48,348 nt of DNA from Candidatus Limnocylindria bacterium (GTDB lineage Bacteria > Chloroflexota > Limnocylindria > QHBO01). This document shows, one piece after another, positions 10,009 through 46,040 of the stretch; the stretch's first letter is position 1; each line of letters opens with the position of its first letter. The notes beneath the pieces were generated by a model. The model saw nothing but the letters and a program-made list of their open reading frames with translations, was not told the origin of the DNA and did not search any database. The stretch spans positions 1 to 48,348 of the forward strand of contig JBGQCU010000001.1 in assembly GCA_041495495.1 (NCBI GenBank), given 5' to 3'. The position numbers and the translations under genes are program-made.

Positions 10009-10037
10009 GCCCCGAATGCTAGACCGGCAATGGCAGA

Positions 10038-11882
10038 ATGCGCAGACTCGTGACCGCTGCAGCAACCGTCCTGCCCACCCAGCCATCGCCCTACGCCGTC
10101 CTGCGCAACCGGTCCTTCCGGCGCATCTGGACAGCCCAGCTGGTCTCGACCATCGGTGACGCGCTCACCAGCCTGGCGGCCGGGATCATCGTCCTCGAGC
10201 GGACTCATTCGGTCCTGAGCGTGGGGCTGATGCTGATGGCCACCGCCGTGCCGACGCTCGTGGTGGGCCTGATCGCCGGAGTCGTGGTCGACCGCTACGA
10301 CCGCAAGAAGATCATGGTCGCCTCCGACATCATCCGCGCCGGGTTGGTGGCGACCCTCCCCTTCCTGGTGCACCAGAGCGTGGTCTGGCTGTATGTCATC
10401 GTGATGCTGTCGTCGTCGGTGACCCAGTTCTTCTCGCCGGCCAACGAGAGCGTCCTGCCCGAGATCGCCTCCGAGGAGGAGCTCGGCGCGGCAAACGCGA
10501 TCATGGCCATCGCCCAGTTCGGATCGACGGCGGTCGGATTCGCCGCGGCGGGCTTCCTGGCGCAGACCAAGTCGATCGAGCTGGTCTTCTTCATCGACTC
10601 CGCCACCTTCCTCTTCTCGGCGCTCATGATCAGCCTGGTAAGGATCGCACCGCTCGAGGTGACCGAGCACACCACCCTGGGCGAGCAGATCCGCAACATC
10701 GGGTTCGGCGCCAAGTTCATCTGGAAGACCCCCGTCCTGCGCAGCCTGAACATCGTGCGGGTGCCGGTCCTGATCGCGTTCGGCATGCAGAACGTGCTGC
10801 TGCTGCCGTTTGCCCTCCAGGTGCTGAAGGCCGATGACGTCCAGTACGGGCTGCAGGAGGGACTCACCTCGGTCGGCTTCGTGATCGGCAGCCTGGCCAT
10901 GGCCCGCCTCGCTGACCGATTGCGCGAGGGCCAATGGCTCTTCCTCTCGTTCATCGCCATGGGCCTGATGGGCCTCGCCTACTCCCTGCAATCGATGGTC
11001 TGGGTAGCGATCGCGCTGATCGCCATCTCGGGGGTGATGAACGCGCCCTCGTTCGTGGCCGGGCGCCTGATCAACCAGCGCAACACCCCGCGTGAGGCGC
11101 GCGGTCGAGTCTTCTCCACCTCGTACGTGCTCCGCGACGTGGTCTACCTGACCGGCATGGGGCTCGCGGGCCTGGCGGATCTGTTCGACGTGAGGATCCT
11201 GTTCGTCCTCAGCTCGCTGGTGGTCATCGGGGCCGGCCTGATCTGCGCGGTCCTGCCCGGCCTTGGCCTGCCCGCCGCGGAGTGGCGCCGCTCGATCAGC
11301 CTGCTGCGCGGCGCGGCCACCGCCCCGGGCCTGGCGATCGGTCGCTCGCCGACCGTCGCGGACCTGGTGTCGCTGGGCAGCTACCTGCCGGCGCTCTCCG
11401 GCCTGACCCCGCGCGACCGCGACGCCATCGTCTCGCGCGGGCGCATCCGCGAGGCGGCCACCGGGACCGCGGTGATGCGCGTCGGTGACAAGGGTGAGGC
11501 GGCCTACTTCGTGCTCGGCGGCAAGCTGGTGGCCGGCACGGCGACGGAGGGCGGCCCGCGCCGGACGCTCTCCACCATGGGCCCCGGCGAGATCTTCGGG
11601 GAGATCGCCACCCTCACCGGCAGCACGCGGACCGCCGACGTGGTGGCCGAGGAGCCGTCGACCCTGCTGGAGATCCCCGCCGACGTGCTGCGCCAGCTGA
11701 TGGCCGCCCCCCAGTTCGGGCAGCTGGTGCTCAGCAAGATGAACGAACGCCTGACCCGCTCCGCCTCGCTGGGCGACCTCCCGCGCTTCGGCGGCCAGGA
11801 CCGCGCCACGCTGCGCAGGCTGCGTCGCGAGGCGGCCGCGGGAAGCACCGTCGCCTCGTCCGAGGCGCCCGTCCAGGCCTAG
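10038..11882 (+). CDS. MFS transporter fused to a C-terminal cyclic-nucleotide-binding domain
   Basis: 614 aa. The first ~420 aa have 12 predicted TM helices (MFS_3/EntS-like, with DRYDRKKIM after TM2). The C-terminal ~150 aa are a cNMP-binding fold with the phosphate-binding cassette FGEIATLTGSTRTADVVA. Confidence 0.75.
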   Translation: MRRLVTAAATVLPTQPSPYAVLRNRSFRRIWTAQLVSTIGDALTSLAAGIIVLERTHSVLSVGLMLMATAVPTLVVGLIAGVVVDRYDRKKIMVASDIIRAGLVATLPFLVHQSVVWLYVIVMLSSSVTQFFSPANESVLPEIASEEELGAANAIMAIAQFGSTAVGFAAAGFLAQTKSIELVFFIDSATFLFSALMISLVRIAPLEVTEHTTLGEQIRNIGFGAKFIWKTPVLRSLNIVRVPVLIAFGMQNVLLLPFALQVLKADDVQYGLQEGLTSVGFVIGSLAMARLADRLREGQWLFLSFIAMGLMGLAYSLQSMVWVAIALIAISGVMNAPSFVAGRLINQRNTPREARGRVFSTSYVLRDVVYLTGMGLAGLADLFDVRILFVLSSLVVIGAGLICAVLPGLGLPAAEWRRSISLLRGAATAPGLAIGRSPTVADLVSLGSYLPALSGLTPRDRDAIVSRGRIREAATGTAVMRVGDKGEAAYFVLGGKLVAGTATEGGPRRTLSTMGPGEIFGEIATLTGSTRTADVVAEEPSTLLEIPADVLRQLMAAPQFGQLVLSKMNERLTRSASLGDLPRFGGQDRATLRRLRREAAAGSTVASSEAPVQA

Positions 11883-14669: not shown

Positions 14670-16106
14670 CTAGCGGCCGTTTGTGTGCAGCAGGTCAAGG
14701 TAGGCGCCAAATCCGCTCGCGGTCGCCCACTCGGTCGCCGACTCGACCGATGTGCCCTCGCCCCACTCATTGAAGGTGGTGATCAGCTGGAAGGGTGCTC
14801 CGCTGGCGACCATGTCCTGGACGTTCTGCGCCCAGCGCGCCAGGTCACGCGCAAGCCGAGCGGACGCCTCATTTGCCTTGTTGAAACCGGGGCTGATGGC
14901 GTAGCTGTAGCCGACCTGCGCATCCGCGGCCTTGGCGGGCGCGTACTGATGCCAGCCGGCCGGCTGCGCCGCGCAGGTCTTGAATCCCGAGAACACCTTG
15001 AGCACCACGTAGGCATCGATGCCTACGTTGGCCTGGCTCCAGCGAGTCGCCATGGCGCACGCATCCGCTCCATCGGTGTAGACGAACACGACGAATCGCC
15101 CATTGACCTTGAAGAAGCTCGGATCGACGGCGTAATGGTCGCGAATGTATCGCAGGTCGCTCGCGATCTGGGACACGGCCGGGTCGCCCTGGGCCTCCTG
15201 CTCGTAATAGAGGCTCCAGCGGAAGCTGCTCCCCGCCGTATTGGCCAGGATGGTGGGGACCCGCACGTCCGATCGCGTCCCCACGCCCCACCACGACGAG
15301 ATGCCGACCTTGATACCGCCGTACTGCATCGCCTGGATGTGCTGCCGGATCGTGGCCGAGGCGGACGAGTCGTAGAACCCGAGCGACGGATGGTAGTGCG
15401 TGAAAGGATTCATCCCCTGCTGGTTCCATGCCTCCGGGAACCACGGATAGTAGAAGGCGGCCCGAACCGGGAGGGAAGGTTGGGAGCTGGACGGCAACGG
15501 CTTTGGTGTGGGCACGGGCGTCGATGTGGGCGGAGCGGGCGTCACTGCCGGGCCCTCCGTCCCGGACGCTGATGCCGAGGCCGATGGACCGCCAGGCACC
15601 GAGGTGGCCAACATCGTGGAGGAAGGGCCGGCTTCGCCCGACGTGGCCGGGCTGGAGCTGGCCGCATTGGTCGGGGAGGCGGACTGATTGGACGGCGAGG
15701 GCTGCAGCGCCACCACCAGCAGCCCCGCCGACGCGAGCACCGCCGCGGCGAGCCCAGCCCTGCCCAGAAGGTTCGGGCGGCTCACCGCTGCCATGGCGGC
15801 GACCCGATGCGTGCCGGGAAGAGCGCTGGCGGGTACCGACACCACGATGGAGAAGCCCCCCGCCCCATCGGCTCGCGCCCCTCCGAGCTGCTCTGACTCA
15901 TCAAAGACAATCGCGACCTCCTGTCCCGAGGAGAATCCGGTACCCGTGATACCGACCTCCGCCCCGGCCGGCACCTCCGCCGCTGACAGGTTGATGAGCG
16001 CGCCCAGGGCCCGAACGCCAGGCTCCGGCGCGATGATCGCCAGGGTAAGCAGCAGGATGACACCGGTTGCGATGAGACCGCGAAGCCCACGCCGGGCCGT
16101 GCGCAT
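14670..16106 (-). CDS. Membrane-anchored IPT/Ig-like + Ser/Thr/Pro-linker + GH99-like glycoside hydrolase domain protein
   Basis: Start chosen at ATG 16106 (MRTARRGLRGLIATGVILLL...); ATG 16178 and 16265 are possible but add only Pro/Ala/Arg-rich sequence. IPT-like segment VPAGAEVGITGTGFSSGQEVAIVFD. Long S/T/P/A linker. The C-terminal domain carries AFYYPWF, LGFYDSS...IRQHI...GIKVGISSWW and TFNEWGEGTSVE, which parallel the GH99 motifs (FYY.WY, LG.YSS.D, SW, SFNEWHEGTQIE). Confidence 0.6.
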   Translation of the reverse strand: MRTARRGLRGLIATGVILLLTLAIIAPEPGVRALGALINLSAAEVPAGAEVGITGTGFSSGQEVAIVFDESEQLGGARADGAGGFSIVVSVPASALPGTHRVAAMAAVSRPNLLGRAGLAAAVLASAGLLVVALQPSPSNQSASPTNAASSSPATSGEAGPSSTMLATSVPGGPSASASASGTEGPAVTPAPPTSTPVPTPKPLPSSSQPSLPVRAAFYYPWFPEAWNQQGMNPFTHYHPSLGFYDSSASATIRQHIQAMQYGGIKVGISSWWGVGTRSDVRVPTILANTAGSSFRWSLYYEQEAQGDPAVSQIASDLRYIRDHYAVDPSFFKVNGRFVVFVYTDGADACAMATRWSQANVGIDAYVVLKVFSGFKTCAAQPAGWHQYAPAKAADAQVGYSYAISPGFNKANEASARLARDLARWAQNVQDMVASGAPFQLITTFNEWGEGTSVESATEWATASGFGAYLDLLHTNGR

Positions 16107-16443
16107 CGGCGCCGTGGCCTGCGTGGTGGACGGCGCGGCAGACGCGCGATGGGTCGGGGCCAGTGCATTCGGACGCATCCCACTCCTCGCGGCTGGCCTG
16201 GGGCCCGGATCGCTTTCTGTCTCCGGGCGCGGGCGAGGAGCGTACGCGGCAGATACGCGCCGCACGAGAGGCGCTTTCCTCCCACGATCGGGCTAGGAGA
16301 TCCGTACCGCCGGGACCTCGCCGGGCCGCCGCTCCCGCGCAGGTCGCAGGTGGCCTCGAGCCCGATCGTGATCGCTCCCCTGGCCCCACCTGGCCCTGAT
16401 CGGCCTTTCGGCGCGCAGCCGTCACATGCAAAGATGAACGGCG

Positions 16444-17127
16444 ATGTCGACGGACCCAACGGTTGAGCCCGGCACTCCACGGCGCCTCCCCCCTCCCCAG
16501 CGCCTGGTGATGAACGGTGTGACAGTTGTGCTCGTCCTGGTTGCCTGGCTCTTTTCCAGCGCTCCGCCACTGCCCGCAATCCAGACCCCGGAGCCATCGG
16601 CCAGCGTCGCTGCGCCCACCGTCACGCCGCAACCGACTGCGACGGTGCCAACCCAGGCCCTGACGTTCCCCGCAGTCGCCGACGCCTACGTCTTCGCCGG
16701 GCGTCCGGACTTGAATTACGGTGGCTCGGTGAAGCTGCGTCTCGACGCGGATCCCGAAACCACGAGCTATGTCAGGTTCTCCGTGTCCGGGATTCATTCG
16801 CAGGTGGTCGGCGTGGCGCTCCGCATTTATGCCCTCTCGAAGCTGAACGCAGGCTTCAGCGTCCAGGCTGCTGCAGCCGATTGGACCGAATCCGGAATCA
16901 CCTACGGCAACCGCCCGGGTGCGGGCGGCCCCGTCCTCGGCAGTTCCGGGCTGATCCCGGGCGAGTCGTGGGTCACCGTCCAGCTCGGGCCCGCAATTCA
17001 CGGCGACGGCGAGTACAGCTTCGTCCTGTCCACCACCGGCACCGGGCTGGCAATGGCCAGCCGCGAAGCCGGAGCTGCCACGGCGCTCATGCTGATCGTG
17101 CAGGTGGCGATCGGCCCAGGCGGTTGA
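16444..17127 (+). CDS. N-terminally anchored DNRLRE-domain (CBM96-like) protein
   Basis: 227 aa. TM anchor VMNGVTVVLVLVAWLF, then a Pro/Thr linker. The pattern ADAYVFAGRPDLNYGGSVKLRLD...SYVRFSV...VVGVALRIYA...WTESGITYGNRP is typical of DNRLRE domains. Confidence 0.6.
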   Translation: MSTDPTVEPGTPRRLPPPQRLVMNGVTVVLVLVAWLFSSAPPLPAIQTPEPSASVAAPTVTPQPTATVPTQALTFPAVADAYVFAGRPDLNYGGSVKLRLDADPETTSYVRFSVSGIHSQVVGVALRIYALSKLNAGFSVQAAAADWTESGITYGNRPGAGGPVLGSSGLIPGESWVTVQLGPAIHGDGEYSFVLSTTGTGLAMASREAGAATALMLIVQVAIGPGG

Positions 17128-17172
17128 TCGCAGCGTCCCACCGGCCGGCACGTGGTGGTGATGTTCAGCTCC

Positions 17173-18321
17173 TCATGGCGCGCGCCGGGCCCGGCGGGCC
17201 CGGCGGGCCAGCACGACCGGGGTGGCCGCGAGCGTCGCGATGAGCAGCGCCAGCGCGATGAGGCGCCCGGCATCCGACCCCGCCGGTGGAGTCGCGCTGG
17301 CTGGCGACTCGTCCCCGGTCGAGCCGAGCAGATCGACCGTCGGCGGCGGCAGGTGATGGATGTCGCTCAGCACCTGGAGATAGCGATCTCCGTACGAATG
17401 ACTGGGCTCGACCTGCGATTCCTCGCTGAATTCGTTCCAGCTGATGAGACCCACCGCATCCGGCCCGGATTGGACAGCGGCGGCCACCTCTCGTCGCAGC
17501 GTGCCTCCATCATTCCGATCGACAACGGCCACGCCACCGAGCAGCGTGCCGTTGAAGCCCGGCGCGGCCGGCGCGATCCACAGCCCACCTGTGGCGTGGA
17601 CCGAGGCGGCCATCTCGTCGAGCTTGCCCTGGTAGTCGGGATACGTTTCGGGATTGACGGATGACCAGTAGTACGCGTCGCCGTCGACGAGGTGTTGAAC
17701 GCGCTGGTAGCCCTTGACATTCTTCTCGGATGCAAGGATCAGCAGATCCTGACGCAGGTTGGCCGTCACGGAGTCCACTTCGACCTCCGAGTATGCCCAG
17801 GTGCCCGAGAAGATCACGAGGGGCTTCTCAAAGATTCGGAAGACCGGGTTCCGGGCGTAGTGCTCCTGGAAATAGCGCAGATCGGCCGCGACCCGGGCGG
17901 GCGACTGCGGGCGACGAAAGAAGTCGAGTCCCTGGTAGATGATCGCGAGCGTGAAATCTTCCTCGGTCGCCACCTGGATCAGCATCTCGAGGCGACGATC
18001 GAGCGTTGGGGTGCTCTTCCAGCTCACGATGAACCCGGTGATTCCTGCCGCTTTGGCCCAGCGGATGTGCTGCCGCATGACGACGGGGTCATCGCTGGAG
18101 TAGGGCCCGAGCGCCGGAACGTCGCGCTTCGCCCGGTCCCACGAGGTTCGGTCGAACCAGATGTAGTAGTACGCAAGAAACGGGACCGGGTCGCTCGCCG
18201 CTCGTGCAACGGGCCGGCTCAGCGGTGCGAGCCCTGGTATGCCCTGAACCGCTGATACCGATCCCAGGGCCGTCATGAGCACCACCGCGATTGCGGTTGG
18301 CAGTGCTCGTCGCCGGCTCAC
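17173..18321 (-). CDS. GH99-like glycoside hydrolase, signal peptide + C-terminal TM tail anchor
   Basis: The GTG start at 18321 overlaps the stop of the upstream LysM gene (GTGA). Signal-like N-terminus VSRRRALPTAIAVVLMTALGSVSAVQG. Motifs YYYIWF, LGPYSSDDPVVMRQHIRWAKAAGITGFIVSW and SWNEFSEESQVE. The C-terminus is ...SATPPAGSDAGRLIALALLIATLAATPVVLARRARRARRAP. Confidence 0.6.
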   Translation of the reverse strand: MSRRRALPTAIAVVLMTALGSVSAVQGIPGLAPLSRPVARAASDPVPFLAYYYIWFDRTSWDRAKRDVPALGPYSSDDPVVMRQHIRWAKAAGITGFIVSWKSTPTLDRRLEMLIQVATEEDFTLAIIYQGLDFFRRPQSPARVAADLRYFQEHYARNPVFRIFEKPLVIFSGTWAYSEVEVDSVTANLRQDLLILASEKNVKGYQRVQHLVDGDAYYWSSVNPETYPDYQGKLDEMAASVHATGGLWIAPAAPGFNGTLLGGVAVVDRNDGGTLRREVAAAVQSGPDAVGLISWNEFSEESQVEPSHSYGDRYLQVLSDIHHLPPPTVDLLGSTGDESPASATPPAGSDAGRLIALALLIATLAATPVVLARRARRARRAP

Positions 18322-20297
18322 CGGATCCTCAGCCGCGTGCCGGGCAGAATCCGGTCCGGATCGAAGACGACATCCCCGTTCGCATGCAGGATCTCCGGCC
18401 ACGCGTTCTCGTCGCCGAGCATCGTCGCCGCGATGGACCGCAGCGTATCGCCGGCGCGGACGACGTAGACCCTGGGCACGCGGATCGGCTCAGCCCTGGG
18501 AACGCGGATCGCCTGAGCCGCGGGAACCTTGGTCGCCTTATCCCTCCGAACCCGGGTCGCCTGAGCCCTGGGAACGCGGATCGCCTGAGCCGCGGGAACC
18601 TTGGTCGCCTTATCCATAGGAGCCTCGGGCGCCTCAGGCCTGCGAACCCGGGTCGCCTGAGCCCTGGGAACGCGGATCGCCTGAGCCGCGGGAACCTTGG
18701 TCGCCTTATCCATAGGAGCCTCGGGCGCATCGGCCCCTTGAACCCGGGTCGCCTGAGCCCTGGGAGCGCGGATCGCCTGAGCCGCGGGAACCTTGGTCGC
18801 CTTATCCGTAGGAGCCTCGGGCGCCTCAGGCCTGCGAACCCGGGTCGCCTGAGCCCTGGGAACGCGCGGCGCCTTGACGGCACCCGATGATTCCGCGCTT
18901 GGCGCTACCGGTGTCGGGACGTGGGCCACCCGTGTCTGGGCTGACCCGGGCGGGAAGATGCCGGATGCCATGGTGCGGACGACGCGTGGGCCCCTCGCGA
19001 CAGCCCCGACCAGCTCCGCCGTCCGGTTGACTGCGGCCGTCGCCACCGGAGCGCCTCGTCTCCAAGCGATGCCGCGCAGCGCCTGACCCATCCCGGGCCG
19101 GCCCGCGAGCATGAGGCCAAGAACGACGATAAGGAGCAGACCCGTGGCCACCCCGATGTCCAGGTAGCTGATGAACTTCAGCTCGACCTGCTGGTCACGG
19201 GAGAGGGCAACCGGCCACGAGAACGAGATACCCCAGCCCTGGGCGACGACTCGATAGTCGCCGCGAGCCAAGGCCGTCAAGGTCAACTCTCCATCCTTCG
19301 CCGGCATGCCGACCACGCGTCCGTCGGGATAGGTGACGGCCACATTGGTGTCAATCGGGAAGCCGAAGAGAGCGTCGCGCACGGAGATATGGGCCGAGTA
19401 GAAGAGAAGCGTGATGGTCCAGACGCGCTGCGTGCTCGGCGTGAAGCGCTGCTGGGCAACATGGATCACGCTTGCGCCGTCGACCACCACATCCTCCGCG
19501 GCGTAGGTGACTTCCTTCGCCTGGAGCTCGCCGGCGAGCGGAACCACTCGCTGGCCGAGAACCGTGAAGGGGCTGTCGGCCGGAACACTCATCTGGCTGC
19601 CGATGGCGCTCTTGAGGTCCACCTTCGTCACCCGACCAGGGTCGACCGGATGGCCGGCCAGGTCCACGAACGCGAGGCGGATCTGGTAGTACATCTCGTA
19701 CGTGGCGTAGATATCCCCGTTGTGGGTCCTCCACCGCGCGAATCGCTCCTCCACGCCGGGCGCGACCTGCTTGTCCGCCGCCTGGGGGCGCAAAGACGCG
19801 TCAAACGTGGGGGAGACCTGAACGCGAGCTACTCCATCGGCATCGGACACGAACACCGTGCCATTGAGGTTGAAGGACAGCCCTGGGTTCGATGGCACAG
19901 TTCGAATCGTGAAGAGACGCGGCTGCACGGTCAGGGTCCCGCCTGCCTGTGAGGGCAGCAATGTCGTCGTGCCGTTGAAGGTCACCTGGAAGTAGTACGT
20001 ACCAGGATTGACCGGTGTCTTCAGATCGAAGGTCGCTGTCCCGGCTGCGTCGGTGCGGCCGCCCGCGACATCCCCGGCGATGTGGAGATCGACGTGACGG
20101 TCGCCAAGAGGGGCCCCGCTCTGCAGCCTCAGATGGGCAGTCACCGTGGCACGGTCGCCCCAGACCACCGGCGCCGGCCGCTCAACGGTAAGCACGGTGG
20201 GGTCCTTGACCGCCCCGCGCGCCGGAGACGCCATCAGCGCGACAGCCAGAGCCATCAGCGCCATGGATCGCATTCGGCGCATGGATGTGCGTCTCAC
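18318..20297 (-). CDS. Signal peptide + beta-rich (Ig-like) ectodomain + single TM + basic tandem-repeat region + C-terminal LysM domain protein
   Basis: 659 aa. The GTG start at 20297 overlaps the phosphoesterase stop (GTGA). Signal sequence MALMALAVALMASPARG. TM helix ISYLDIGVATGLLLIVVLGLMLAG, followed by RPGMGQALRGIAWRRG. 32-aa repeats DKATKVPAAQAIRVPRAQATRVRRPEAPEAPM. LysM domain YVVRAGDTLRSIAATMLGDENAWPEILHANGDVVFDPDRILPGTRLRI. Confidence 0.75.
   Translation of the reverse strand: MRRTSMRRMRSMALMALAVALMASPARGAVKDPTVLTVERPAPVVWGDRATVTAHLRLQSGAPLGDRHVDLHIAGDVAGGRTDAAGTATFDLKTPVNPGTYYFQVTFNGTTTLLPSQAGGTLTVQPRLFTIRTVPSNPGLSFNLNGTVFVSDADGVARVQVSPTFDASLRPQAADKQVAPGVEERFARWRTHNGDIYATYEMYYQIRLAFVDLAGHPVDPGRVTKVDLKSAIGSQMSVPADSPFTVLGQRVVPLAGELQAKEVTYAAEDVVVDGASVIHVAQQRFTPSTQRVWTITLLFYSAHISVRDALFGFPIDTNVAVTYPDGRVVGMPAKDGELTLTALARGDYRVVAQGWGISFSWPVALSRDQQVELKFISYLDIGVATGLLLIVVLGLMLAGRPGMGQALRGIAWRRGAPVATAAVNRTAELVGAVARGPRVVRTMASGIFPPGSAQTRVAHVPTPVAPSAESSGAVKAPRVPRAQATRVRRPEAPEAPTDKATKVPAAQAIRAPRAQATRVQGADAPEAPMDKATKVPAAQAIRVPRAQATRVRRPEAPEAPMDKATKVPAAQAIRVPRAQATRVRRDKATKVPAAQAIRVPRAEPIRVPRVYVVRAGDTLRSIAATMLGDENAWPEILHANGDVVFDPDRILPGTRLRIR
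18472..18870. repeat. In-frame tandem repeat: one 72-bp unit, three 96-bp units and a partial unit, inside the LysM-protein gene
   Basis: The core gccctgggaacgcggatcgcctgagccgcgggaaccttggtcgccttatcc recurs starting at 18493, 18565, 18661, 18757 and, partially, 18853. Spacings are 72, 96, 96 and 96 bp, and copies are nearly identical. The repeat creates long artefactual ORFs in several frames on both strands. Confidence 0.9.
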
Positions 20298-21658
20298 GTT
20301 CGGCTCCTGAACGCGCGACTCCAGGTCACGGCCCGCGCGACGAGGCCCGGGCCGGTCGCCACCAGCAGCAGCCCGAGCGCGAGGACGATCGCCGCTGCAT
20401 ATGCGGCGTACAGCACAGCGCGATTCGGCTCGACGGGCGGGGGCGTGGCGAGGCTCGCAGACAGGAATGCGGGCGGCCGCGGCGGCCGAGTGAAGTCGAA
20501 CGCGGAAGCGATGCTGGTGGCGGCCGCATCGCGAGCCGCCAACGGAGGCAATCCCCAGTTCGTTTCGATGAACTTCATGACCGAGGTGTAGTCGAGCGTG
20601 GTGGAATTGACCTGGCCCTGGCGCGCGTAGGCGCTGACGAGCAGCGCGGGGACCCGGAACCCGTAGCCGTAGGTGTCAACCTGCGGCGGCGAGACGTGGT
20701 CATACCACCCGCCCCAGTCGTCATAGGCCCACATGAAGGCCGAGGTGTCCCAGTAGTCAGATCGGGTGAGGGCGTTGACGATGGTCTGGACCAGACGCTG
20801 CCCCGCCTGAATGCTGCCCGGCGGGTGCTCGCTTGAGCCGAGTGGGGCCATGTAGGCCACCGTCGGCAGCGTCCCGTTGCGGAGGTCGGTGTAGTACTGC
20901 TCCATGTCGACGATGTGGCTGAACAGGTACGGGTTGTCGAGGAAGCGGTTGAAGTCGAGCAATGGGACGAACACCGCCTGCGCCGCCTTGTCTCCCGCGT
21001 TCTGCAGCGTTCGATAGTTGATGGTGGGGTCGTAGTTCTGGACGTAGAACTTCCAGGAGATCCCTGCCGACTCGAGCCGATCGAAGATGGTCAACAGGTC
21101 GCCGAAGCCCGTCGTCGGGGGAGAGTCGTGATTCGGGTCACCCGGGGTGGCGGTGATCCAGTACATGTGGTTCATGAAGCTCCCGGCGGCCGCCGAGCTG
21201 AAGAACCGATCGAACAGCACGTACCGGTTCGCCACGTTCCAGTAATAGGGGAGGTCGCGGGCGTCGTAGTACCCCATCGTCAGGCGAGCAATCTGCTCCG
21301 CGTTCAAGCCGCCTGCCGCGATGTGGGCCGAGACGAACCCGTCCATCTTCCCATTGAGGTACTGGCCGACAAAGGTCTCCCGGTTGTGGAGCAGGTCGCT
21401 GATCGGCTGACTGCCAAGGTGGAACGGCTTGACACAACCGAGGCTGGGCTTGGTGGGATCGATCGGCATGCAGGTGCCGGGCGGGAGGCCATCGGCATTG
21501 GGGTAGGTACCGAAGTAGTTGTCGAACGAGTGGTTCTCCTGCAGGAGAAACAGGAAGTGCTTGATCGGGGTCTGCGTCGGCGGGTCGGCGGCAATCGCCT
21601 GGCCGGGGACCAGGATCGTGAAGAGCAGGGCGAGGACGGCGCAGGCTCGCGTGATCAC
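20294..21658 (-). CDS. Phosphoesterase family protein (phospholipase C / acid phosphatase AcpA type), secreted with C-terminal TM tail anchor
   Basis: 454 aa. The GTG start overlaps the GT-C stop (GTGA). Signal sequence MITRACAVLALLFTILVPGQAIA. The hallmark FLLQENHSFDNYFGTYP is present. The C-terminus is ...LATPPPVEPNRAVLYAAYAAAIVLALGLLLVATGPGLVARAVTWSRAFRSRT. Confidence 0.75.
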   Translation of the reverse strand: MITRACAVLALLFTILVPGQAIAADPPTQTPIKHFLFLLQENHSFDNYFGTYPNADGLPPGTCMPIDPTKPSLGCVKPFHLGSQPISDLLHNRETFVGQYLNGKMDGFVSAHIAAGGLNAEQIARLTMGYYDARDLPYYWNVANRYVLFDRFFSSAAAGSFMNHMYWITATPGDPNHDSPPTTGFGDLLTIFDRLESAGISWKFYVQNYDPTINYRTLQNAGDKAAQAVFVPLLDFNRFLDNPYLFSHIVDMEQYYTDLRNGTLPTVAYMAPLGSSEHPPGSIQAGQRLVQTIVNALTRSDYWDTSAFMWAYDDWGGWYDHVSPPQVDTYGYGFRVPALLVSAYARQGQVNSTTLDYTSVMKFIETNWGLPPLAARDAAATSIASAFDFTRPPRPPAFLSASLATPPPVEPNRAVLYAAYAAAIVLALGLLLVATGPGLVARAVTWSRAFRSRT

Positions 21659-23397
21659 GGACGCACCTCGTAGATCACGATGACCGGCGATTCGACATTG
21701 ACCCCGGATGCCGACGGTATCGTCACGGTCTCGGTGTGCACCGCCCGACCGTGGTAGCGGCGGACGTACTCGAGCAGCTTGCTTGCGAAGAAGCCGGAAC
21801 GGGAGGCGGAGAACGAGTCCCAGACGACGTATTGCAGCTCGTTGTTGCGGATCAGGAGATCCGGGTTCTTCAGCGGGTCATAGGACGGGTTGCGCTGAAG
21901 GGGGTTCGGGCTCACCGACAGTCCCGACGCGGACCGATGTCCGTAGAACTGCAGGATGTTGGCCATGGAAGGACCGATGGTCATCAGGTGAGAGCCGGCC
22001 GGGGTGTTGGCGTCGACCCATGCTCCCGCCTCGCGTCCACCTGGCACCCCACCCGATCCGGCGAGGAACGTACCCGAGGCGGACGGCGATACGATGGCGA
22101 GGGTCGGCACGGCCACCGATATGAGGACAGCCGCCACGGCCAATGGCCTGAGCCAGGACAGGTTGACAGCCCAACCGATCGGCGTTGCGACCCAGCCTGG
22201 GCGGAACTCGGTGAGTGCCCTCGCGGCCAACAGGGCCACCGGCGGGGCAATCGGCAGCAGGTACTGAAAGCCCTTGACCGGCCACAGCTGGAAGAACGCA
22301 ATCGGGACCACCACCCAGGACGCAAGGAGGACGTCCTGCCATCCGCGCCTGCGACGCAGAAAGACGAGGCCGGCAATCGCAACGGCCACCACCAGCAGGC
22401 CGATGGACGGTGTCACGACAGTGGCGTAGAAGATCCAGTCGTGGTTTGGCCGGCGGAACAGCTCCCAGACCAGATACTGGCGCGTCCGCTCCGCGCCGCC
22501 GCCCCCTGCCAGCACCAGGGACATGGGAAACGGAGCGATCACCACGAGCATCGCCCCTGTCGCAATCACAAGGTCGCGGATGCGGACGCGGATGTCCTGC
22601 CGCAGAGCGAGGAAGGTGTAGACCGCGCCGAGAAGAACGATGCCGGTCTCCTTGGCAAGGAAGGTGAGGCCCATGGCCCCACCCGCGGCGTACAGCCAGG
22701 ATGCTCTCTGGGTGGTCGCGAACTTGGCTGTCAGGTACAGGGTCAGCGTGGCCAGGAAGGTCATCGGGCCATCCAGCAACACCTGGCGCGACACGACCAC
22801 GTGGTATGGCATCAACGCCAGGATCGCGGCGGCAATCAGGCCCGCGGCATGCCCGTACATGAGACGGCCCAGGAAATACGCCAGGTAGACGGTGGCGAGG
22901 CCGATGACGACGGCAAGCAGCCTGCCGGTCAGGTCGCTCACGCCATAGTGGTAGACGATCGCCAGGACGAACTGGAACAGCAGCGGATGGGCTCTGAACA
23001 CCGGGAAGATCTGCGACAGGGTCGGGTCCTGGGCGATGGCCGCCGCCTGACCGGAGTAGACCGCCTCGTCGGTGTTATAGCCCAGGGCGTTCAGCGACCA
23101 GATGCGCACGACGGTTGCCACGGCCAGAATCACCACCAGCGGGAGCCATGTCACCAACGTGGTAGCGATCGCGCGTGCCAGTGCCAGGGCTCGCTCCCCG
23201 ATCTGGGGAGACCAGATCCTCACGGCGCCGATCCGCGTCGATCGGACGGTGGCGAGCGACATGCGGCGGGCGTGCGCGACCGCGGCAGGGGGGTCCTGTG
23301 GCAGGCGGGACCGCAAGGCGCCGAAACGCAACGCGCTAGGCAGGTTCCGGCTGATCGCCTGCCACCAGACCTTGCCGGTCCTGGCGGGCGGCTGCAT
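21655..23397 (-). CDS. GT-C fold glycosyltransferase (PMT_2 / ArnT-like, GT39/GT83-type)
   Basis: 580 aa and polytopic. The first extracytoplasmic loop carries GYNTDEAVYSGQA (DE motif). A soluble domain follows the last TM helix. ATG 23397 lies only 5 nt after the stop of the upstream gene. Confidence 0.7.
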   Translation of the reverse strand: MQPPARTGKVWWQAISRNLPSALRFGALRSRLPQDPPAAVAHARRMSLATVRSTRIGAVRIWSPQIGERALALARAIATTLVTWLPLVVILAVATVVRIWSLNALGYNTDEAVYSGQAAAIAQDPTLSQIFPVFRAHPLLFQFVLAIVYHYGVSDLTGRLLAVVIGLATVYLAYFLGRLMYGHAAGLIAAAILALMPYHVVVSRQVLLDGPMTFLATLTLYLTAKFATTQRASWLYAAGGAMGLTFLAKETGIVLLGAVYTFLALRQDIRVRIRDLVIATGAMLVVIAPFPMSLVLAGGGGAERTRQYLVWELFRRPNHDWIFYATVVTPSIGLLVVAVAIAGLVFLRRRRGWQDVLLASWVVVPIAFFQLWPVKGFQYLLPIAPPVALLAARALTEFRPGWVATPIGWAVNLSWLRPLAVAAVLISVAVPTLAIVSPSASGTFLAGSGGVPGGREAGAWVDANTPAGSHLMTIGPSMANILQFYGHRSASGLSVSPNPLQRNPSYDPLKNPDLLIRNNELQYVVWDSFSASRSGFFASKLLEYVRRYHGRAVHTETVTIPSASGVNVESPVIVIYEVRP

Positions 23398-23402
23398 CTC
23401 GA

Positions 23403-25082
23403 CTAGACCACTTCCTTGGCGACCGCGCCCGCATCCGTGCGAGAGTCATCCTCGACGGCCGCCTCAATGGGGAGCGCGACCAGCCGATTCTTGCGGGACC
23501 GAGCTTCGATGAGCCCGGGCAGCACCTCTGCCCACTCATGACCCGGCACTCGAAGCCTCCAGATCCTCGCATCGGTGAGGGAGGCAGCAAGGATCTCCCT
23601 CTCGGTGCGACGGAGCGTCGGGTAGTCGTCCCCGCCGATGCGGAGATGCGGCGCGAAGGTGGCGAACGGCGGGAAGCCGTATGCGTCGTCGGTGTTGTCG
23701 ATCAGCTGATCGATGGCGTCCTCCGCGCTGATCTCCTCGCGAAATGCCTCACCTCGTTCGAGCAGGAAGACATGTCGGATGGGAGCCTCGCCGCCGACCT
23801 CGCAATCGAACAGGCTGTTGATGTGGTACTTCGGGGGCGGAACGAGCCACTGCACCACCGAGTTGATCGACATGATCGGGATGTTGAACCTGCCCAGCCG
23901 CTGGCCCACGCTCCGACCGGTCTTGGAGTGCAGGCGGCTCTGAATCGCGAGTGCCGCGCGTTGGCGCCGAGTGAGGTCCTGACCCGCGATCGCCGACATC
24001 GTGTGATAGCTCAGGGTCATCGGCTTCGGGTACGAGATGGCACGGCCATCTGCGCTGATGATGGTCATGTCGTCGCTCAGGAACCGATAGCCGCGTTCCC
24101 GCACCAGCCGGATGACCGTGCTGGTCTTGCCGGTGTCCGTGAGCGCCGAGAGCAGGACCGCATGCTCGCCGGCAGCCAGCGACGCGGAGTGCAGCAGGAC
24201 ATAGCCCTTCGAGACGAGCAGGAACCGCAGGAACGCCTCGATGATGTTCGTGTACAGGACGTGCGGGGACCGCGCCAGCAGGCGGTTCACCGAGATGACG
24301 ACCGGTGAACCCATCTGGATCCGGAAGTTTGCGCCGGCGGCGCCGAGCTGCTCTCGGTAGTGCAGACGATCACCCTCGGCCACGAAGCGGGTGCGAAGGG
24401 TCGGGAGGCTGCCGGTCCTGTTGATCACGATCCGCAGATCGGGCTCGGCGAGGTCATCGGTTCGGAAGAAGCCCAGCTCTCGCAGCTGCACGGCCGACTC
24501 CACCGCGAGAATGCCGGCGATGTCGTAGCGGTAGGTCTTCGCCCGCAAAGGACGCGGCCCGGGCTGGTGCGGTCTCGCCGGCCATGCGCGCTTCGAGGGC
24601 GTTCCAGCCCCGTCGAGGGGATAGGCGGTCGCTGGATCGAGTGCCGCGTCGGTCAGGGTCGGCTCGCTCCAGATCATGTTGCGTGCGATGAGGAAACGGA
24701 ACATGAACAGGCCGCCGAGGGTTGCCAGGTTGGACCAGAAAGCGGACGCGCCCAGGGTGTCGATCAGCAACCAGAGGGCCGGGATGCGCGCCAGCAGAGT
24801 GAGGTTGTTCACGAGGATGAACGAGAGAAACCGGCGCGACGCGGCCTGACTGCCGTCTCCGGCATCAAAGACCCAGCGCTCAACCCAGTAGAAGTTCCAG
24901 ATGCTCGAGCCCTGGGTAGCGACGATGGCGGCCAGGGCGTAGGGCGATCCGGCCAGATCCACGAGTGCGCTGAAGAGCAGCTGGTTGACGATGATGCCGC
25001 TCAGGCCAACCAGGCCGAAGCGGACGAACTGGGCCGTCAGGAAACGAGACGGGCCAAGCCGAGCAGATGTGGAAGATGCCAA
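23403..25082 (-). CDS. GtrA-like 4-TM domain fused to an HprK-like P-loop kinase domain
   Basis: 559 aa. The TTG start at 25082 is preceded by GAGGGA at a 6-nt spacing. The N-terminal ~140 aa are GtrA-like (FVRFGLVGLSGIIVNQLLF...WNFYWVERWVF...). The segment LLHSASLAAGEHAVLLSALTDTGKTSTVIRLVRERGYRFLSDDMTII aligns by eye with the HPr kinase C-terminal core [45 protein letters not shown]. Confidence 0.65.
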   Translation of the reverse strand: MASSTSARLGPSRFLTAQFVRFGLVGLSGIIVNQLLFSALVDLAGSPYALAAIVATQGSSIWNFYWVERWVFDAGDGSQAASRRFLSFILVNNLTLLARIPALWLLIDTLGASAFWSNLATLGGLFMFRFLIARNMIWSEPTLTDAALDPATAYPLDGAGTPSKRAWPARPHQPGPRPLRAKTYRYDIAGILAVESAVQLRELGFFRTDDLAEPDLRIVINRTGSLPTLRTRFVAEGDRLHYREQLGAAGANFRIQMGSPVVISVNRLLARSPHVLYTNIIEAFLRFLLVSKGYVLLHSASLAAGEHAVLLSALTDTGKTSTVIRLVRERGYRFLSDDMTIISADGRAISYPKPMTLSYHTMSAIAGQDLTRRQRAALAIQSRLHSKTGRSVGQRLGRFNIPIMSINSVVQWLVPPPKYHINSLFDCEVGGEAPIRHVFLLERGEAFREEISAEDAIDQLIDNTDDAYGFPPFATFAPHLRIGGDDYPTLRRTEREILAASLTDARIWRLRVPGHEWAEVLPGLIEARSRKNRLVALPIEAAVEDDSRTDAGAVAKEVV

Positions 25083-25222
25083 TATGAATCCCTCGACGCA
25101 TGGGCAACGATGAGTCCGGATTCGTACTCAGGTAACCAAGGACGGCCACGAATTGAGCTGTCCGTTGAGGACGTGTCTCGCAGCGTTGGCCGTCACACGT
25201 GGTCGCCTGAGCCCGTTCCCTG

Positions 25223-25251
25223 AGGCTAGTACGAAGGTACTAAGAATACAA
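25223..25251 (-). promoter_or_regulatory. Candidate promoter of the envelope operon (TTGTAT-N17-TAGCCT) with an embedded palindrome
   Basis: Read on the minus strand. The -35 TTGTAT is at plus coordinates 25246-25251 and the -10 TAGCCT at 25223-25228. The perfect inverted repeat TAGTAC-GAAG-GTACTA (25227-25242) fills the spacer and overlaps the -10, which is operator-like. The site is ~140 nt upstream of the TTG start. Confidence 0.3.
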
Positions 25252-25372
25252 GGACCCGATGGGTCGGGGGGGCCGTAAGTCGTTGATACTGTTGCACTTT
25301 GTCAACAGGCAGGGGCATGATCCCCATCTCTCGTTAACCTTCGGTGCATGTTGAGTTGGGTAGGATTGGGTC

Positions 25373-25564
25373 ATGGAAGCAGCGAAGCCTCAGCCGCCTG
25401 ACCCACAACAGGGTCTTGCGAGCCTTCCGTGCAGCGTATGCGGCCAGCCGACCACGGGCTGGATCTACTACTCCACGACGGACGATGACGGCAACGACGT
25501 GGTCGAGGGGTTCTCGGCCTGCGCTGCCCACCTCCCACAGAACGTCGAGTCGGAGGCGAGCTAG
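25373..25564 (+). CDS. Small Cys-containing protein (63 aa), possible zinc-finger; hypothetical
   Basis: ATG preceded by TAGGA at a 7-nt spacing. Potential ligand set CSVC...C..H (C20, C23, C50, H53). Third-position GC is high in most codons. No family recognised. Confidence 0.4.
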   Translation: MEAAKPQPPDPQQGLASLPCSVCGQPTTGWIYYSTTDDDGNDVVEGFSACAAHLPQNVESEAS

Positions 25565-25567
25565 CCG

Positions 25568-25798
25568 CTACGAAGCTGAACGCGTGCGACCAGGGCGGAT
25601 CGACAGGCCCGGCCGCAGTCGCAGGCGCAGCACCATCAGCAGTGCCTCGCCCACGATGGCACCACTCATCTTCGACGACCCGGCCATGCGTTCGCGGAAG
25701 GTGATCGGAACCTCACGGATCCTCGCTCCCGAGCGATGGGCGCGCCACGTCATCTCGATCTGAAACCCGTACCCGGATCGATCCGGCTTGAATTGCGG
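25568..25798 (-). pseudogene. 3' remnant of a polyprenol-phosphate-mannose/glucose synthase (GT2, Ppm1/DPM1/GtrB-like) gene
   Basis: The translation [55 protein letters not shown] matches only the C-terminal ~55 aa of the catalytic domain (pattern GY.FQ.E...RA...G..I.EVPI.F.ER..G.SKMS). The expected ~170 N-terminal residues are absent. The upstream part of this frame overlaps another gene and reads as Arg/Pro-rich noise, and there is no start codon at the point where homology begins. Confidence 0.65.
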
Positions 25799-25827
25799 TG
25801 CCGCGACGCAACGAGCGTCGGCCCGGG

Positions 25828-26169
25828 CTATTCGAACAGGGTCGGCAGGTCGCTCACCAACTTCGAGCGGGCGCGCATCGGTCCCAGGCCCGCGGCACGG
25901 GCGGCGGCGTGGGCCTCCAGGTCCACGTGCGGGCCAAAGAGGATCACCCGAGGCCGGGCAGATTCCGGCGCCTCTTCGCACCAGGCGGCGATCCGCCCGC
26001 CCCAGTCCGCGGCACGATCGCCCCAATCGACCAGCAGCAGCCGGACCTCGGCGGGCGGTGGCAGGTCGGTCGGATCAGTGGCACGCACGAATGGAGCGCG
26101 GGCGCGCTCCGCGGCGGCGGCGATCCGCGATGCGATCATCAGGTCGCGGGCGAGGAGCGCGACCGTCAC
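25828..26169 (-). CDS. Hypothetical protein (113 aa), possibly a CheY-like/flavodoxin-like fold without a recognisable phospho-acceptor site
   Basis: The GTG start at 26169 overlaps the stop of the upstream gene (GTGA). The sequence VTVALLARDLMIASRIAAAAERA...VRLLLVDWGDR...RVILFGPHVDLEAH has an alternating beta-alpha pattern. The tracked 241-aa ORF is a shadow upstream of this GTG. Confidence 0.5.
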   Translation of the reverse strand: MTVALLARDLMIASRIAAAAERARAPFVRATDPTDLPPPAEVRLLLVDWGDRAADWGGRIAAWCEEAPESARPRVILFGPHVDLEAHAAARAAGLGPMRARSKLVSDLPTLFE

Positions 26170-42289: not shown

Positions 42290-42379
42290 CACGGGTCCGA
42301 TAGCGTACCCCCTTCCGCCCACCCGGGCGATACCCAATCGCCGCGCGCCGCCGACGCCAGCGGCCCTTGCGCCCGCCGC

Positions 42380-42385
42380 TATGAT
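42380..42385 (+). promoter_or_regulatory. Candidate -10 box (TATGAT) 9 nt upstream of the glgP ATG
   Basis: TATGAT fits TANNNT. There is no SD between it and ATG 42395. No good -35 is seen. Confidence 0.35.
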
Positions 42386-42394
42386 CGGCGCCGC

Positions 42395-45916: not shown

Positions 45917-46040
45917 GCGACGGTGTTCCGTGCGGTGTCCATTTGCCCAAAGGCCCCGTTACGTGCTCCAAAGGGATGCTACCCGGCCGTTCCGAGCGCG
46001 TGACGTGACCGAAAGGTACTACAACGCACTACACGACGGT

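Follow-up and report, generated by a model that had tools for sequence, protein, structure and literature searches.

A conserved envelope gene cluster extending three-component glycosylation logic with a kinase-fold domain, extracellular-type phosphoesterases and GH99-like proteins in Candidatus Limnocylindria and Actinomycetota

Background

The decoration of O-antigens, teichoic acids and arabinogalactan outside the membrane follows a general route that is considered well understood. It is carried out by three-component systems, which consist of a GT2 polyprenyl-phosphate-sugar synthase, a GtrA-family four-helix protein and a glycosyltransferase of the GT-C type that works outside the membrane (PMC11127046, PMC7389260). 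In this article we describe a gene cluster that follows the same logic and adds to it. The cluster lies in a stretch of 48,348 nt from Candidatus Limnocylindria bacterium (contig JBGQCU010000001.1 of assembly GCA_041495495.1, ~70% G+C), which we refer to as the window, and its five minus-strand genes encode a fusion of a GtrA/DPMS-type membrane domain with a kinase-like domain, a GT-C, a phosphoesterase, an Ig-like protein and a GH99-like hydrolase. This version of the route is widespread, being present in at least several hundred species of two phyla, and it carries three conserved additions, namely a kinase-fold domain, a phosphoesterase of extracellular type, and partner proteins of the GH99-like and CBM96 types.

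The closest described systems are GtrA/GtrB/Gtr* of Shigella, GtlA or CsbB with GtcA and a GT-C in Listeria and Bacillus, and PpgS-Rv3632-Rv3779 of mycobacteria, all of which have the GtrA and GT-C features in common with the window locus. These systems use a GT2 polyprenyl-phosphate-sugar synthase, of which the window retains only a remnant of ~79 amino acids (aa), although the GT2 is intact in relatives. Moreover, they have no domain of the PEPCK/HprK fold on GtrA, no ectophosphoesterase, no GH99-like or Ig-like partner and no CBM96, all of which are conserved here and fused to the core in many genomes. The actinobacterial Ppm1 and Pmt, from a phylum that also carries the cluster, combine a polyprenyl-phosphate hexose synthase and a PMT-family GT-C in the manner of the window core, but their genes have no kinase, phosphoesterase or GH99 gene beside them in a cluster, and Pmt is GT39 proper, whereas gene 2 of the window agrees best with PMT_2 and an Agl23-like model.

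Individual components have their own relatives. The DPMS of Pyrococcus furiosus (type III; 5mlz/9ep0) has a four-helix domain like that of gene 1, and the 24 loci in which a GT2 is fused in front of gene 1 have a DPMS-like architecture; DPMS lacks the C-terminal P-loop domain, and in the present cluster synthase and membrane domain often sit on separate proteins. HprK/P, HprK_rel_A/B, ScmC, the lasso-peptide kinases and ATP-dependent PEPCK have the fold, the invariant His and the P-loop-helix-DD arrangement in common with gene 1. The genomic partners of the HprK relatives are genes of the phosphotransferase system or of ribosomally synthesized and post-translationally modified peptides, whereas gene 1 is membrane-tethered and its partners are glycosylation genes. 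The mycobacterial decaprenyl-phospho-arabinose and the Gram-negative pentofuranose systems have a phosphorylated lipid-linked sugar intermediate, a dedicated phosphatase, a GtrA-like or SMR-type flippase and a GT-C (PMC11127046), but there the phosphate comes from phosphoribosyl pyrophosphate rather than from a kinase, the PAP2 or HAD phosphatase is cytoplasmic, and GH99 and CBM96 are absent. Finally, the GH99 enzymes (Bacteroides BT3990, 4acy; human MANEA) have the motif NEW-HEG where gene 5 has NEF-SEE and a second copy has NEW-GEG; gene 5 is very distant from them (E 1e-10 to 1e-12), also passes the GH71 cut-off and is membrane-tethered at both ends.

In the literature searched, which left out most subscription journals, we found no description of a combination of GtrA, an HPr-type kinase, GT-C, phosphoesterase and GH99. 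This agrees with an initial annotation of the window, according to which classic GtrA/GtrB/GT-C modules lack kinase, phosphoesterase and GH99 and which did not recognize the locus as a described one. A search for ScmC/SynChlorMet literature returned only unrelated acronyms. The core logic is that of the established three-component pathway, hence the system is not categorically new.

Results

Gene organization and conservation

The five genes of the cluster are as follows.

23403-25082, minus strand: gene 1, GtrA/DPMS + PEPCK/HprK-fold fusion, 559 aa, TTG start
21655-23397, minus strand: gene 2, PMT_2/PMT-type GT-C, 580 aa
20294-21658, minus strand: gene 3, AcpA/PLC-family (phospholipase C) phosphoesterase, 454 aa
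18318-20297, minus strand: gene 4, Ig-like beta-sandwich protein, 659 aa
17173-18321, minus strand: gene 5, GH99-like hydrolase, 382 aa from the coupled GTG (the longest open reading frame begins at 18402)

The tight packing recorded in the initial annotation can be read directly from the sequence: genes 1 and 2 are joined by TAG-TCGAG-ATG with a 5-nt spacer (23398-23402), and the other three junctions are GTGA stop/start overlaps at 21655-21658, 20294-20297 and 18318-18321. That annotation had carried the unit to 25251, which is too far, given that gene 1 starts at 25082, its stop-to-stop frame closes at 25127 and 25083-25251 is a non-coding leader. It had also taken the five genes to be the whole unit, which is incomplete at both ends, with a GT2 remnant upstream and a CBM96 gene and a second GH99-like gene downstream. 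The TTG start of gene 1 also appears in the JGI calls on four metagenome contigs with an identical gene-1 protein, and the sole JGI contig that spans the last two junctions (L085) is called with the same 4-nt overlaps. The absence of a sigma-70-like promoter or intrinsic terminator inside the five-gene block, in a promoter and terminator scan, is weak support for a single transcript; the scan as a whole was uninformative, with no promoter and with 3 terminator-like sites where 3.7 were expected. No RNA family turned up when the whole window was scanned with Rfam, which leaves the 290-nt leader without a riboswitch. Overlaps of the GTGA kind occur widely in high-GC operons and are unremarkable alone; what exceeds chance is the conserved gene order.

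To describe this order we rely on a species scan with one genome per GTDB species, in which 590 of 599 candidate stretches were confirmed, so that the stretches encoding the fusion number at least 590. The carriers belong to Chloroflexota (Limnocylindria) and Actinomycetota, and among them are Oryzobacter terrae, Micromonospora, Dactylosporangium, Actinoplanes, Jatrophihabitans, Acidimicrobiaceae and Thermoleophilia. Eighty loci from the scan entered a neighbourhood survey, where six-frame open reading frames were searched with the window proteins; 57 of these loci are informative, being species-level and extending downstream of the fusion gene by 7 kb or more. The order GT-C, phosphoesterase, gene-4 homologue, GH99 on the same strand is exact in 36 of the 57 informative loci, which come from two phyla, and 6 further loci deviate from it only by a missing phosphoesterase. 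A separate look-up outside these 57 loci found the same order in Streptomyces sp. R44, namely GT2+GtrA+kinase (871 aa), GT-C, a gene-3 homologue (5e-116), a gene-4 homologue and GH99, and the strain also has a convergent purple-acid-type metallophosphoesterase.

Many of the components are joined in single proteins. The fused reading frames among the surveyed loci are the following.

GT2+GtrA+kinase: 24 loci
GtrA+kinase+GT-C: 10 loci
GT-C+gene-4 domain: 2 loci
Gene-4 domain+GH99: 5 loci
GH99+metallophosphoesterase: 5 loci
CBM96+metallophosphoesterase: 25 loci
CBM96+GH99: 8 loci

Protein databases hold further examples, in which the kinase-like domain is part of a GT2+GtrA+domain+PMT_2 protein (P0135), of GtrA+domain+PMT_2 proteins (P0121, P0156), of a domain+PMT_2 protein (P0208) and of one more fusion (P0131), and in which the gene-4 domain is fused to GH99 (P0295, P0304, P0309, P0310). 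The fused frames show that the parts work together.

A related, differently equipped type of cluster occurs in Actinoplanes-type loci (L053, 11563-16093; L076, 12054-14570). There the GT2+GtrA+kinase gene is followed by a processive-type GT2 (Glyco_tranf_2_3) and a divergent PMT_2 GT-C, and the same clusters add a GH5 cellulase-family enzyme and a CBM96-CBM96-metallophosphoesterase protein.

The fusion gene is always accompanied by a phosphoesterase of extracellular type, which is present in 57 of the 57 informative loci and comes in two unrelated folds. The PF04185 type is found in 40 loci and a metallophosphoesterase in 47; all 17 loci without PF04185 have a metallophosphoesterase, and no locus has neither. 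In the loci without PF04185 these are large secreted metallophosphoesterases of calcineurin-like or purple-acid type fused to FN3, PKD and CBM96 modules. Frequent fusion of the phosphoesterases to CBM96 or GH99 points to a glycan rather than a lipid substrate. The constant presence of a phosphoesterase, with one type standing in for the other, gives strong indirect support to an idea put forward in the initial annotation, that a kinase inside the membrane is paired with a phosphoesterase outside. Taken together, the data establish a single conserved multi-component envelope system built on three-component logic.

Protein components

In the profile hidden Markov model searches that had been proposed with the initial annotation, GtrA, PMT_2, PF04185 and GH99 scored above their Pfam cut-offs (given below with each score), LysM stood at 20.2 bits against 20.9, and PF07475 gave no match.

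Gene 1 consists of an N-terminal four-helix membrane domain, a disordered (low-confidence) linker of ~40 aa and a C-terminal P-loop domain of ~350 residues, with the two domains placed as follows.

24669-25022, minus strand: GtrA/DPMS transmembrane domain, aa 21-138, PF04138 at 2.2e-18
23490-24542, minus strand: kinase-like domain, aa ~181-531, defined by fold match and invariant residues

The membrane domain scores 67 bits with PF04138 (cut-off 26.1) and has four helices in the AlphaFold model of gene 1 (predicted local distance difference test score, pLDDT, 83). The profile that we built on 71 gene-1 homologues reaches E 1.1e-13 against residues 253-373 of Pyrococcus DPMS (5mlz), which form its membrane domain, and Foldseek leads from the N-terminal domain to the same protein (5mlz/9ep0, 30% identity). 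The module is best read as the membrane part of a DPMS-type synthase that has been split. Public annotation of gene 1 does not go beyond "GtrA family protein" or "dolichol-phosphate mannosyltransferase".

The GtrA-kinase fusion of the initial annotation was borne out by PF04138 on one side and by structure prediction with Foldseek, which upheld a kinase-type fold, on the other. The label "HprK-like" stands for the fold and fails at the level of the family, where no HprK cut-off is reached. Foldseek places PEPCK (1j3b) first, at 4e-6 over ~400 columns, and HprK/P (2qmh, 3tqf, 1knx) below it at ~2e-3, with a probability of 1.0 for both PEPCK and HprK/P. In sequence comparison, TIGR04352 (HprK_rel_A) matches aa 292-367 at 9.7e-9 with 34.7 bits and TIGR04355 gives 19.4 bits, both against a cut-off of 200; PF07475 (Hpr_kinase_C) finds nothing on gene 1 of the window and peaks at 23.5 bits in relatives (cut-off 33.3), and precomputed matches of PF27840 (ScmC) on relatives are weak or faint. 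Neither the single sequence nor the 71-sequence profile has a meaningful likeness to a solved structure in the kinase-like domain. By its predicted structure the domain has the PEPCK/HprK fold, and we place it in PF27840, the ScmC-like family; it stays under every HprK family cut-off.

The residues that would be needed by a kinase of this fold are conserved. Invariant in the 71 homologues are H298, the P-loop S312-A-x-T-D-T-G-K-T-S-T322 and D337-D338; the His stands 21 residues ahead of the P-loop Lys, and the HprK of B. subtilis aligns over the P-loop-helix-DD segment. The domain has strongly conserved motifs of its own as well (YPKPMTLS, QSRLHSKSGR, PPPK, NTDDAYGFPPF). It is predicted to be cytoplasmic, because a four-helix domain of the DPMS type has both termini in the cytoplasm and because ATP is needed. 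A search with this domain alone against 1.84 billion representative proteins yields 1437 relatives at E<=1e-3, and metagenomes contain thousands of gene-1 homologues, of which the named ones belong to Candidatus Limnocylindria or Chloroflexota. In one locus (L088, 595-4331) a stand-alone kinase-like domain is bordered by two LPG_synthase_TM (MprF-flippase-like) genes and by a GT-C of the PMT_2 type; in this lineage another putative flippase appears to replace GtrA.

Gene 2 was rightly called a GT-C, with PF13231 (PMT_2) at 5.8e-21 (75.8 bits, cut-off 26.1) and PF02366 (PMT) at 8.6e-11 (42.3 bits, cut-off 22.7); the Agl23-like model TIGR03663 matches at 3.7e-12, under its cut-off. Hydropathy suggests at least eight hydrophobic segments, and the C-terminal domain is soluble. 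The DE motif, NTDEAVY, falls in the first outside loop, after the first transmembrane segment, and the N-terminus forms an 80-aa cytoplasmic extension. Sequence search detected no solved relative of this GT-C.

Gene 3 is covered by PF04185 over its full length (profile positions 1-356 of 356; 8.3e-71, 239.4 bits, cut-off 23), and hydropathy gives it a signal sequence at the N-terminus and a transmembrane anchor at the C-terminus, which fits the extracytoplasmic phosphoesterase of the initial annotation. Its nearest solved relatives are AcpA of Francisella (2d1g, 6.5e-29) and bacterial and plant phospholipases C. It falls outside the named equivalogs for the phosphocholine-specific phospholipase C and Burkholderia-type acid phosphatase (TIGR03396, 175 bits against 580; TIGR03397, 158 against 363). 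The motifs QEN...FD, Ser/Thr-x-x-N and YDD...YDH of PF04185, which we take to be metal ligands, can be followed in an alignment to AcpA 2d1g, where QENHSFDNYFG and YDDWGGWYDHV of gene 3 are intact. QEN and YDD are kept in the orthologues of the window, Limnocylindria, Oryzobacter and Micromonospora. In many actinobacterial orthologues, including that of Streptomyces sp. R44, they are replaced by QSG, QGD or QGG and by YDG or YDS; a motif survey found such changes in L046, L052, L056, L062, L065-L069, L073-L078, L081, L082 and L091 (8511-10004). Judging by these motifs, the altered proteins may be pseudo-enzymes, or their active site may be built differently.

Gene 4 had been described as a LysM-repeat protein, which it is not. 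It consists of a signal peptide, a chain of Ig-like beta-sandwiches, a transmembrane helix (aa 381-399), a basic repeat tail and a single, borderline LysM, predicted to be cytoplasmic since it lies downstream of the sole transmembrane helix. Big_3_5 matches at 3e-7, the model of the ectodomain is all-beta with a pLDDT of 91.6, and Foldseek finds the B. anthracis TIE protein 6fwv, pilins and adhesins. An enzymatic role was considered for gene 4 and ruled out, as the confident model contains Ig-like beta-sandwiches only. Two features mark its C-terminal part.

18470-18866, minus strand: 96-bp tandem repeat in the tail, 4.1 copies, 88% matches (Tandem Repeats Finder)
18324-18467, minus strand: single LysM at the C-terminus, PF01476 at 20.2 bits (cut-off 20.9), PRK11198 at 2.3e-10

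The repeat encodes a basic unit of 32 aa, KATKVPAAQAIRVPRAQATRVRRPEAPEAPMD, in the predicted-cytoplasmic tail. On a sister contig the gene-4 protein has 627 aa instead of the 659 aa found here with a 100% identical ectodomain; it is shorter by 32 aa, and therefore the repeat copy number varies within the population. The LysM resembles that of YgaU/Kbp (PRK11198) and not a wall-binding LysM. It is confined to close relatives, which carry precomputed PF01476 matches, and the tail is likewise not conserved beyond them.

Gene 5 encodes a (beta/alpha)8 hydrolase, for which hydropathy indicates a signal or anchor at the N-terminus and a transmembrane anchor at the C-terminus. Its description as GH99-like holds, with PF16317 at 1.1e-12 (48.3 bits, cut-off 33) and a match to the Bacteroides endo-alpha-mannosidase 4acy at 3.9e-10 that sets NEFSEE opposite NEWHEG, the paired Glu of which we take, from BtGH99 and BxGH99 work, to be catalytic. 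The placement in GH99 is loose because the cut-off of GH71 is passed too (PF03659, 1.5e-9, 37.6 bits, cut-off 34). Two related genes adjoin the operon downstream.

14670-16265, minus strand: second GH99-like gene, 531 aa, PF16317 at 8.6e-14 (51.8 bits, cut-off 33)
16444-17127, plus strand: convergent gene for a membrane-anchored CBM96 (DNRLRE-domain) protein, PF24517 at 4.3e-21, NF033679 at 8.5e-15

The second GH99-like protein has an N-terminal membrane segment, a Ser/Thr/Pro-rich linker and the motif NEWGEG, and its orthologues adjoin the cluster in many loci. The CBM96 gene is present in most related loci, where it is often fused to a metallophosphoesterase or GH99. The founding CBM96 binds the polyanion alginate via Lys and Arg, and the DNRLRE domain occurs on acidic-polysaccharide lyases (PMC9971899). 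By analogy, an anionic glycan would fit as the common substrate of the ectoproteins.

Upstream of gene 1, the window has lost most of a GT2 gene.

25571-25807, minus strand: remnant of a GT2 polyprenyl-phosphate hexose synthase, C-terminal ~79 aa, matched by phmmer to the GT2 of relative L001 (3e-22, C-terminal part only)

In L001 the place of the remnant is taken by an intact GT2 of 256 aa with a 1377-aa gene in front of it. An assembly artefact was considered and is ruled out by four independent metagenome contigs with the same remnant, and the truncation is a real deletion in the lineage of the window. An intact GT2 stands immediately upstream in 48 of 74 loci, and 24 loci have it fused to gene 1. 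The intact GT2s of relatives match the AglJ, dolichyl-phosphate hexose transferase, PpgS and ArnC models, all under cut-offs.

Discussion

We consider, with moderate confidence, that the cluster forms one functional system that extends the three-component pathway and that it builds and trims a phosphorylated envelope glycan. In such a system, a GT2 at the cytoplasmic face would load a hexose onto polyprenyl phosphate; in the window this activity would be supplied in trans, the gene having been lost. The four-helix domain of gene 1, whose fold is of the DPMS type, would partner the synthase and help the lipid-linked sugar cross the membrane. With ATP, the tethered P-loop domain would phosphorylate a substrate located at the surface of the membrane, presumably the sugar of the lipid-linked donor or that of a lipid-linked glycan. 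The PMT-type GT-C of gene 2 would then move the sugar to an envelope acceptor outside, and the attachment may be to the cell wall or to surface proteins. There, the tethered gene 3, the GH99-like gene 5 with its second copy, and CBM96 would process the phosphorylated anionic glycan, and the Ig-like gene 4 may act as a scaffold between the GT-C and GH99, as suggested by the fusions.

The likeliest substrate of the kinase-like domain is a lipid-linked sugar, because the alternative phosphoesterases carry carbohydrate-binding or glycosidase modules and because soluble kinases that act on lipid-linked glycans have precedent. The soluble kinase WbdD phosphorylates lipid-linked polymannan. A lipid-linked sugar phosphate is known in decaprenyl-P-ribose-5-P, which is dephosphorylated by Rv3807c (partly PMC11127046). 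Only tentatively do we go further and suggest that a kinase built on DPMS/GtrA phosphorylates the polyprenyl-phosphate-linked sugar or its carrier as an obligatory step of glycan export, with the ectophosphoesterases completing the cycle.

Several points weigh against a system that builds and trims a phosphorylated glycan. The substrate of the kinase is an inference. Among the loci, no cytoplasmic or biosynthetic part is fused directly to a phosphoesterase, and the two sides are linked only via gene 4 and GH99. The presence of phosphoesterases in 57 of 57 loci is a raw count, in which metallophosphoesterases were scored without a genomic background rate. Since many actinobacterial PF04185 orthologues are without QEN/YDD, hydrolysis by the PF04185 protein is not universally required. 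The GT2s match several hexose and N-acetylhexosamine transferase models, all under cut-off, and do not single out one sugar. With the GT2 deleted at the window locus, the pathway there depends on an unseen gene or may be decaying. Lastly, by sequence the kinase-like domain is nearest the HprK branch, whose characterized members phosphorylate proteins or peptides (HPr, lasso-peptide precursors) and not sugars.

This last point leads to an alternative in which the domain is a regulatory protein-serine kinase or an ATP-sensing switch that acts on the synthase, the GT-C or the gene-4 tail, while the phosphoesterases act on an unrelated target. The affinity of the sequence to TIGR04352, TIGR04355, PF27840 (ScmC) and, in relatives, Hpr_kinase_C is in keeping with a protein kinase, as is the action of HprK-branch enzymes on HPr or lasso-peptide precursors, and the 80-aa N-terminal extension of gene 2 and the long cytoplasmic tail of gene 4 offer possible targets. 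A regulatory kinase leaves unexplained, however, why every locus has an ectophosphoesterase of one or the other of two unrelated folds; moreover, the tail and LysM of gene 4 are conserved only in close relatives, and Foldseek ranks PEPCK, a small-molecule kinase, above HprK over ~400 columns. We regard it as unlikely.

Rather more doubtful is a cycle of the carrier lipid, in which the phosphoesterase outside would dephosphorylate the spent carrier, or would cleave polyprenyl-P-sugar in the manner of a phospholipase C and thereby release or transfer sugar-1-phosphate, and the kinase-like domain would re-phosphorylate the polyprenol once it has flipped back. Such a cycle accounts for a kinase that is needed only together with an ectophosphoesterase, the two co-occurring in 57 of 57 loci, and for the kinase-like domain being always attached or adjacent to a lipid-handling membrane domain or a GT-C. 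PF04185 includes true phospholipases C that cut lipid-O-P bonds, and Gram-positive bacteria have a polyprenol pool and an undecaprenol kinase. Yet the known polyprenol and dolichol kinases are integral membrane enzymes and not soluble P-loop domains; the alternative phosphoesterases are large, secreted and fused to CBM96, FN3, PKD or GH99, which suggests a polysaccharide substrate; and the metal-site motifs are degenerate in many PF04185 orthologues.

The association could also be one of a machine with its clients, an explanation that we find less probable still. The GT2/GtrA/GT-C core would then O-glycosylate secreted proteins as Ppm1/Pmt do, and the phosphoesterases, GH99-like proteins and CBM96 would be glycoprotein clients that scavenge, for example, fungal phosphomannan or organic phosphate. 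The PMT type of the GT-C and the Ser/Thr/Pro-rich linkers of the ectoproteins, typical of O-glycosylated regions, are what one would expect of such an arrangement. Secreted phosphatases with CBMs resemble scavenging enzymes, and the GH99 enzymes of gut Bacteroides, which are the PDB matches of gene 5, degrade yeast mannan. Translational coupling of GT-C, phosphoesterase, gene 4 and GH99 is, on the other hand, not what clients would call for, and the GT-C+gene-4 and gene-4+GH99 fusions argue for a physical complex. The ectoenzymes are tethered beside the GT-C and not released, and the kinase-like domain is left without a role.

A chance juxtaposition of unrelated envelope genes, which the initial annotation had proposed to check by gene-neighbourhood conservation and for which only the commonness of GTGA overlaps in high-GC genomes speaks, is refuted by the same order in 36 of 57 loci of two phyla, by the multiple domain fusions, and by the synteny between the pentose-phosphate operon and cysS that is kept in a relative of 57% identity.

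Action of the kinase on the carrier or on the lipid-linked sugar would amount to a new step in lipid-linked glycan export. A phosphorylated glycan processed in the way proposed above would be a previously undescribed envelope polymer of hundreds of soil Chloroflexota and Actinomycetota, among them the abundant yet little-known Limnocylindria and antibiotic-producing actinomycetes (Streptomyces, Micromonospora, Actinoplanes), and its assembly would follow a trans-membrane logic of phosphorylation and dephosphorylation. Such a system would also assign a function to the domain family related to ScmC/HprK and to a large group of bacterial "GH99-like" proteins. The full cluster is present in cultured strains, namely Streptomyces sp. 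R44 (CP163444.1, about 1.105-1.115 Mb), Oryzobacter terrae NBRC 109598 (NZ_CP170578.1, about 0.58-0.59 Mb) and Micromonospora spp., and is thus directly testable.

Genomic setting

One small gene lies between the GT2 remnant and gene 1.

25373-25564, plus strand: small divergent open reading frame, 63 aa, with CxxC...CxxH

The same frame was found by tblastn at the equivalent antisense position in Limnocylindria-type loci (L001-L003, L006-L011, L013, L016, L018 and L041), existing gene calls include it as well, and its product may be a zinc-ribbon regulator.

The cluster is flanked by cysS on one side and by an oxidative pentose-phosphate operon on the other, as it is in the relative of 57% identity. 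Positions 16001-26000 of the window have 65-68% G+C against 69-73% in the flanks. A horizontally acquired island was considered and is ruled out by the conserved position between the pentose-phosphate operon and cysS; the dip in G+C probably stems from the composition of genes for membrane and secreted proteins and not from recent transfer.

Elsewhere in the window, 10023-11882 (plus strand) encodes a major facilitator superfamily transporter (MFS_1/MFS_3) with a C-terminal cyclic-nucleotide-binding domain, an uncommon architecture that is unrelated to the operon. Ordinary context genes include one for a DUF3417 + glycogen-phosphorylase-family protein (42260-44578, plus strand) and one for an M23 peptidase with a PcsB-like coiled coil (44591-45958, minus strand).

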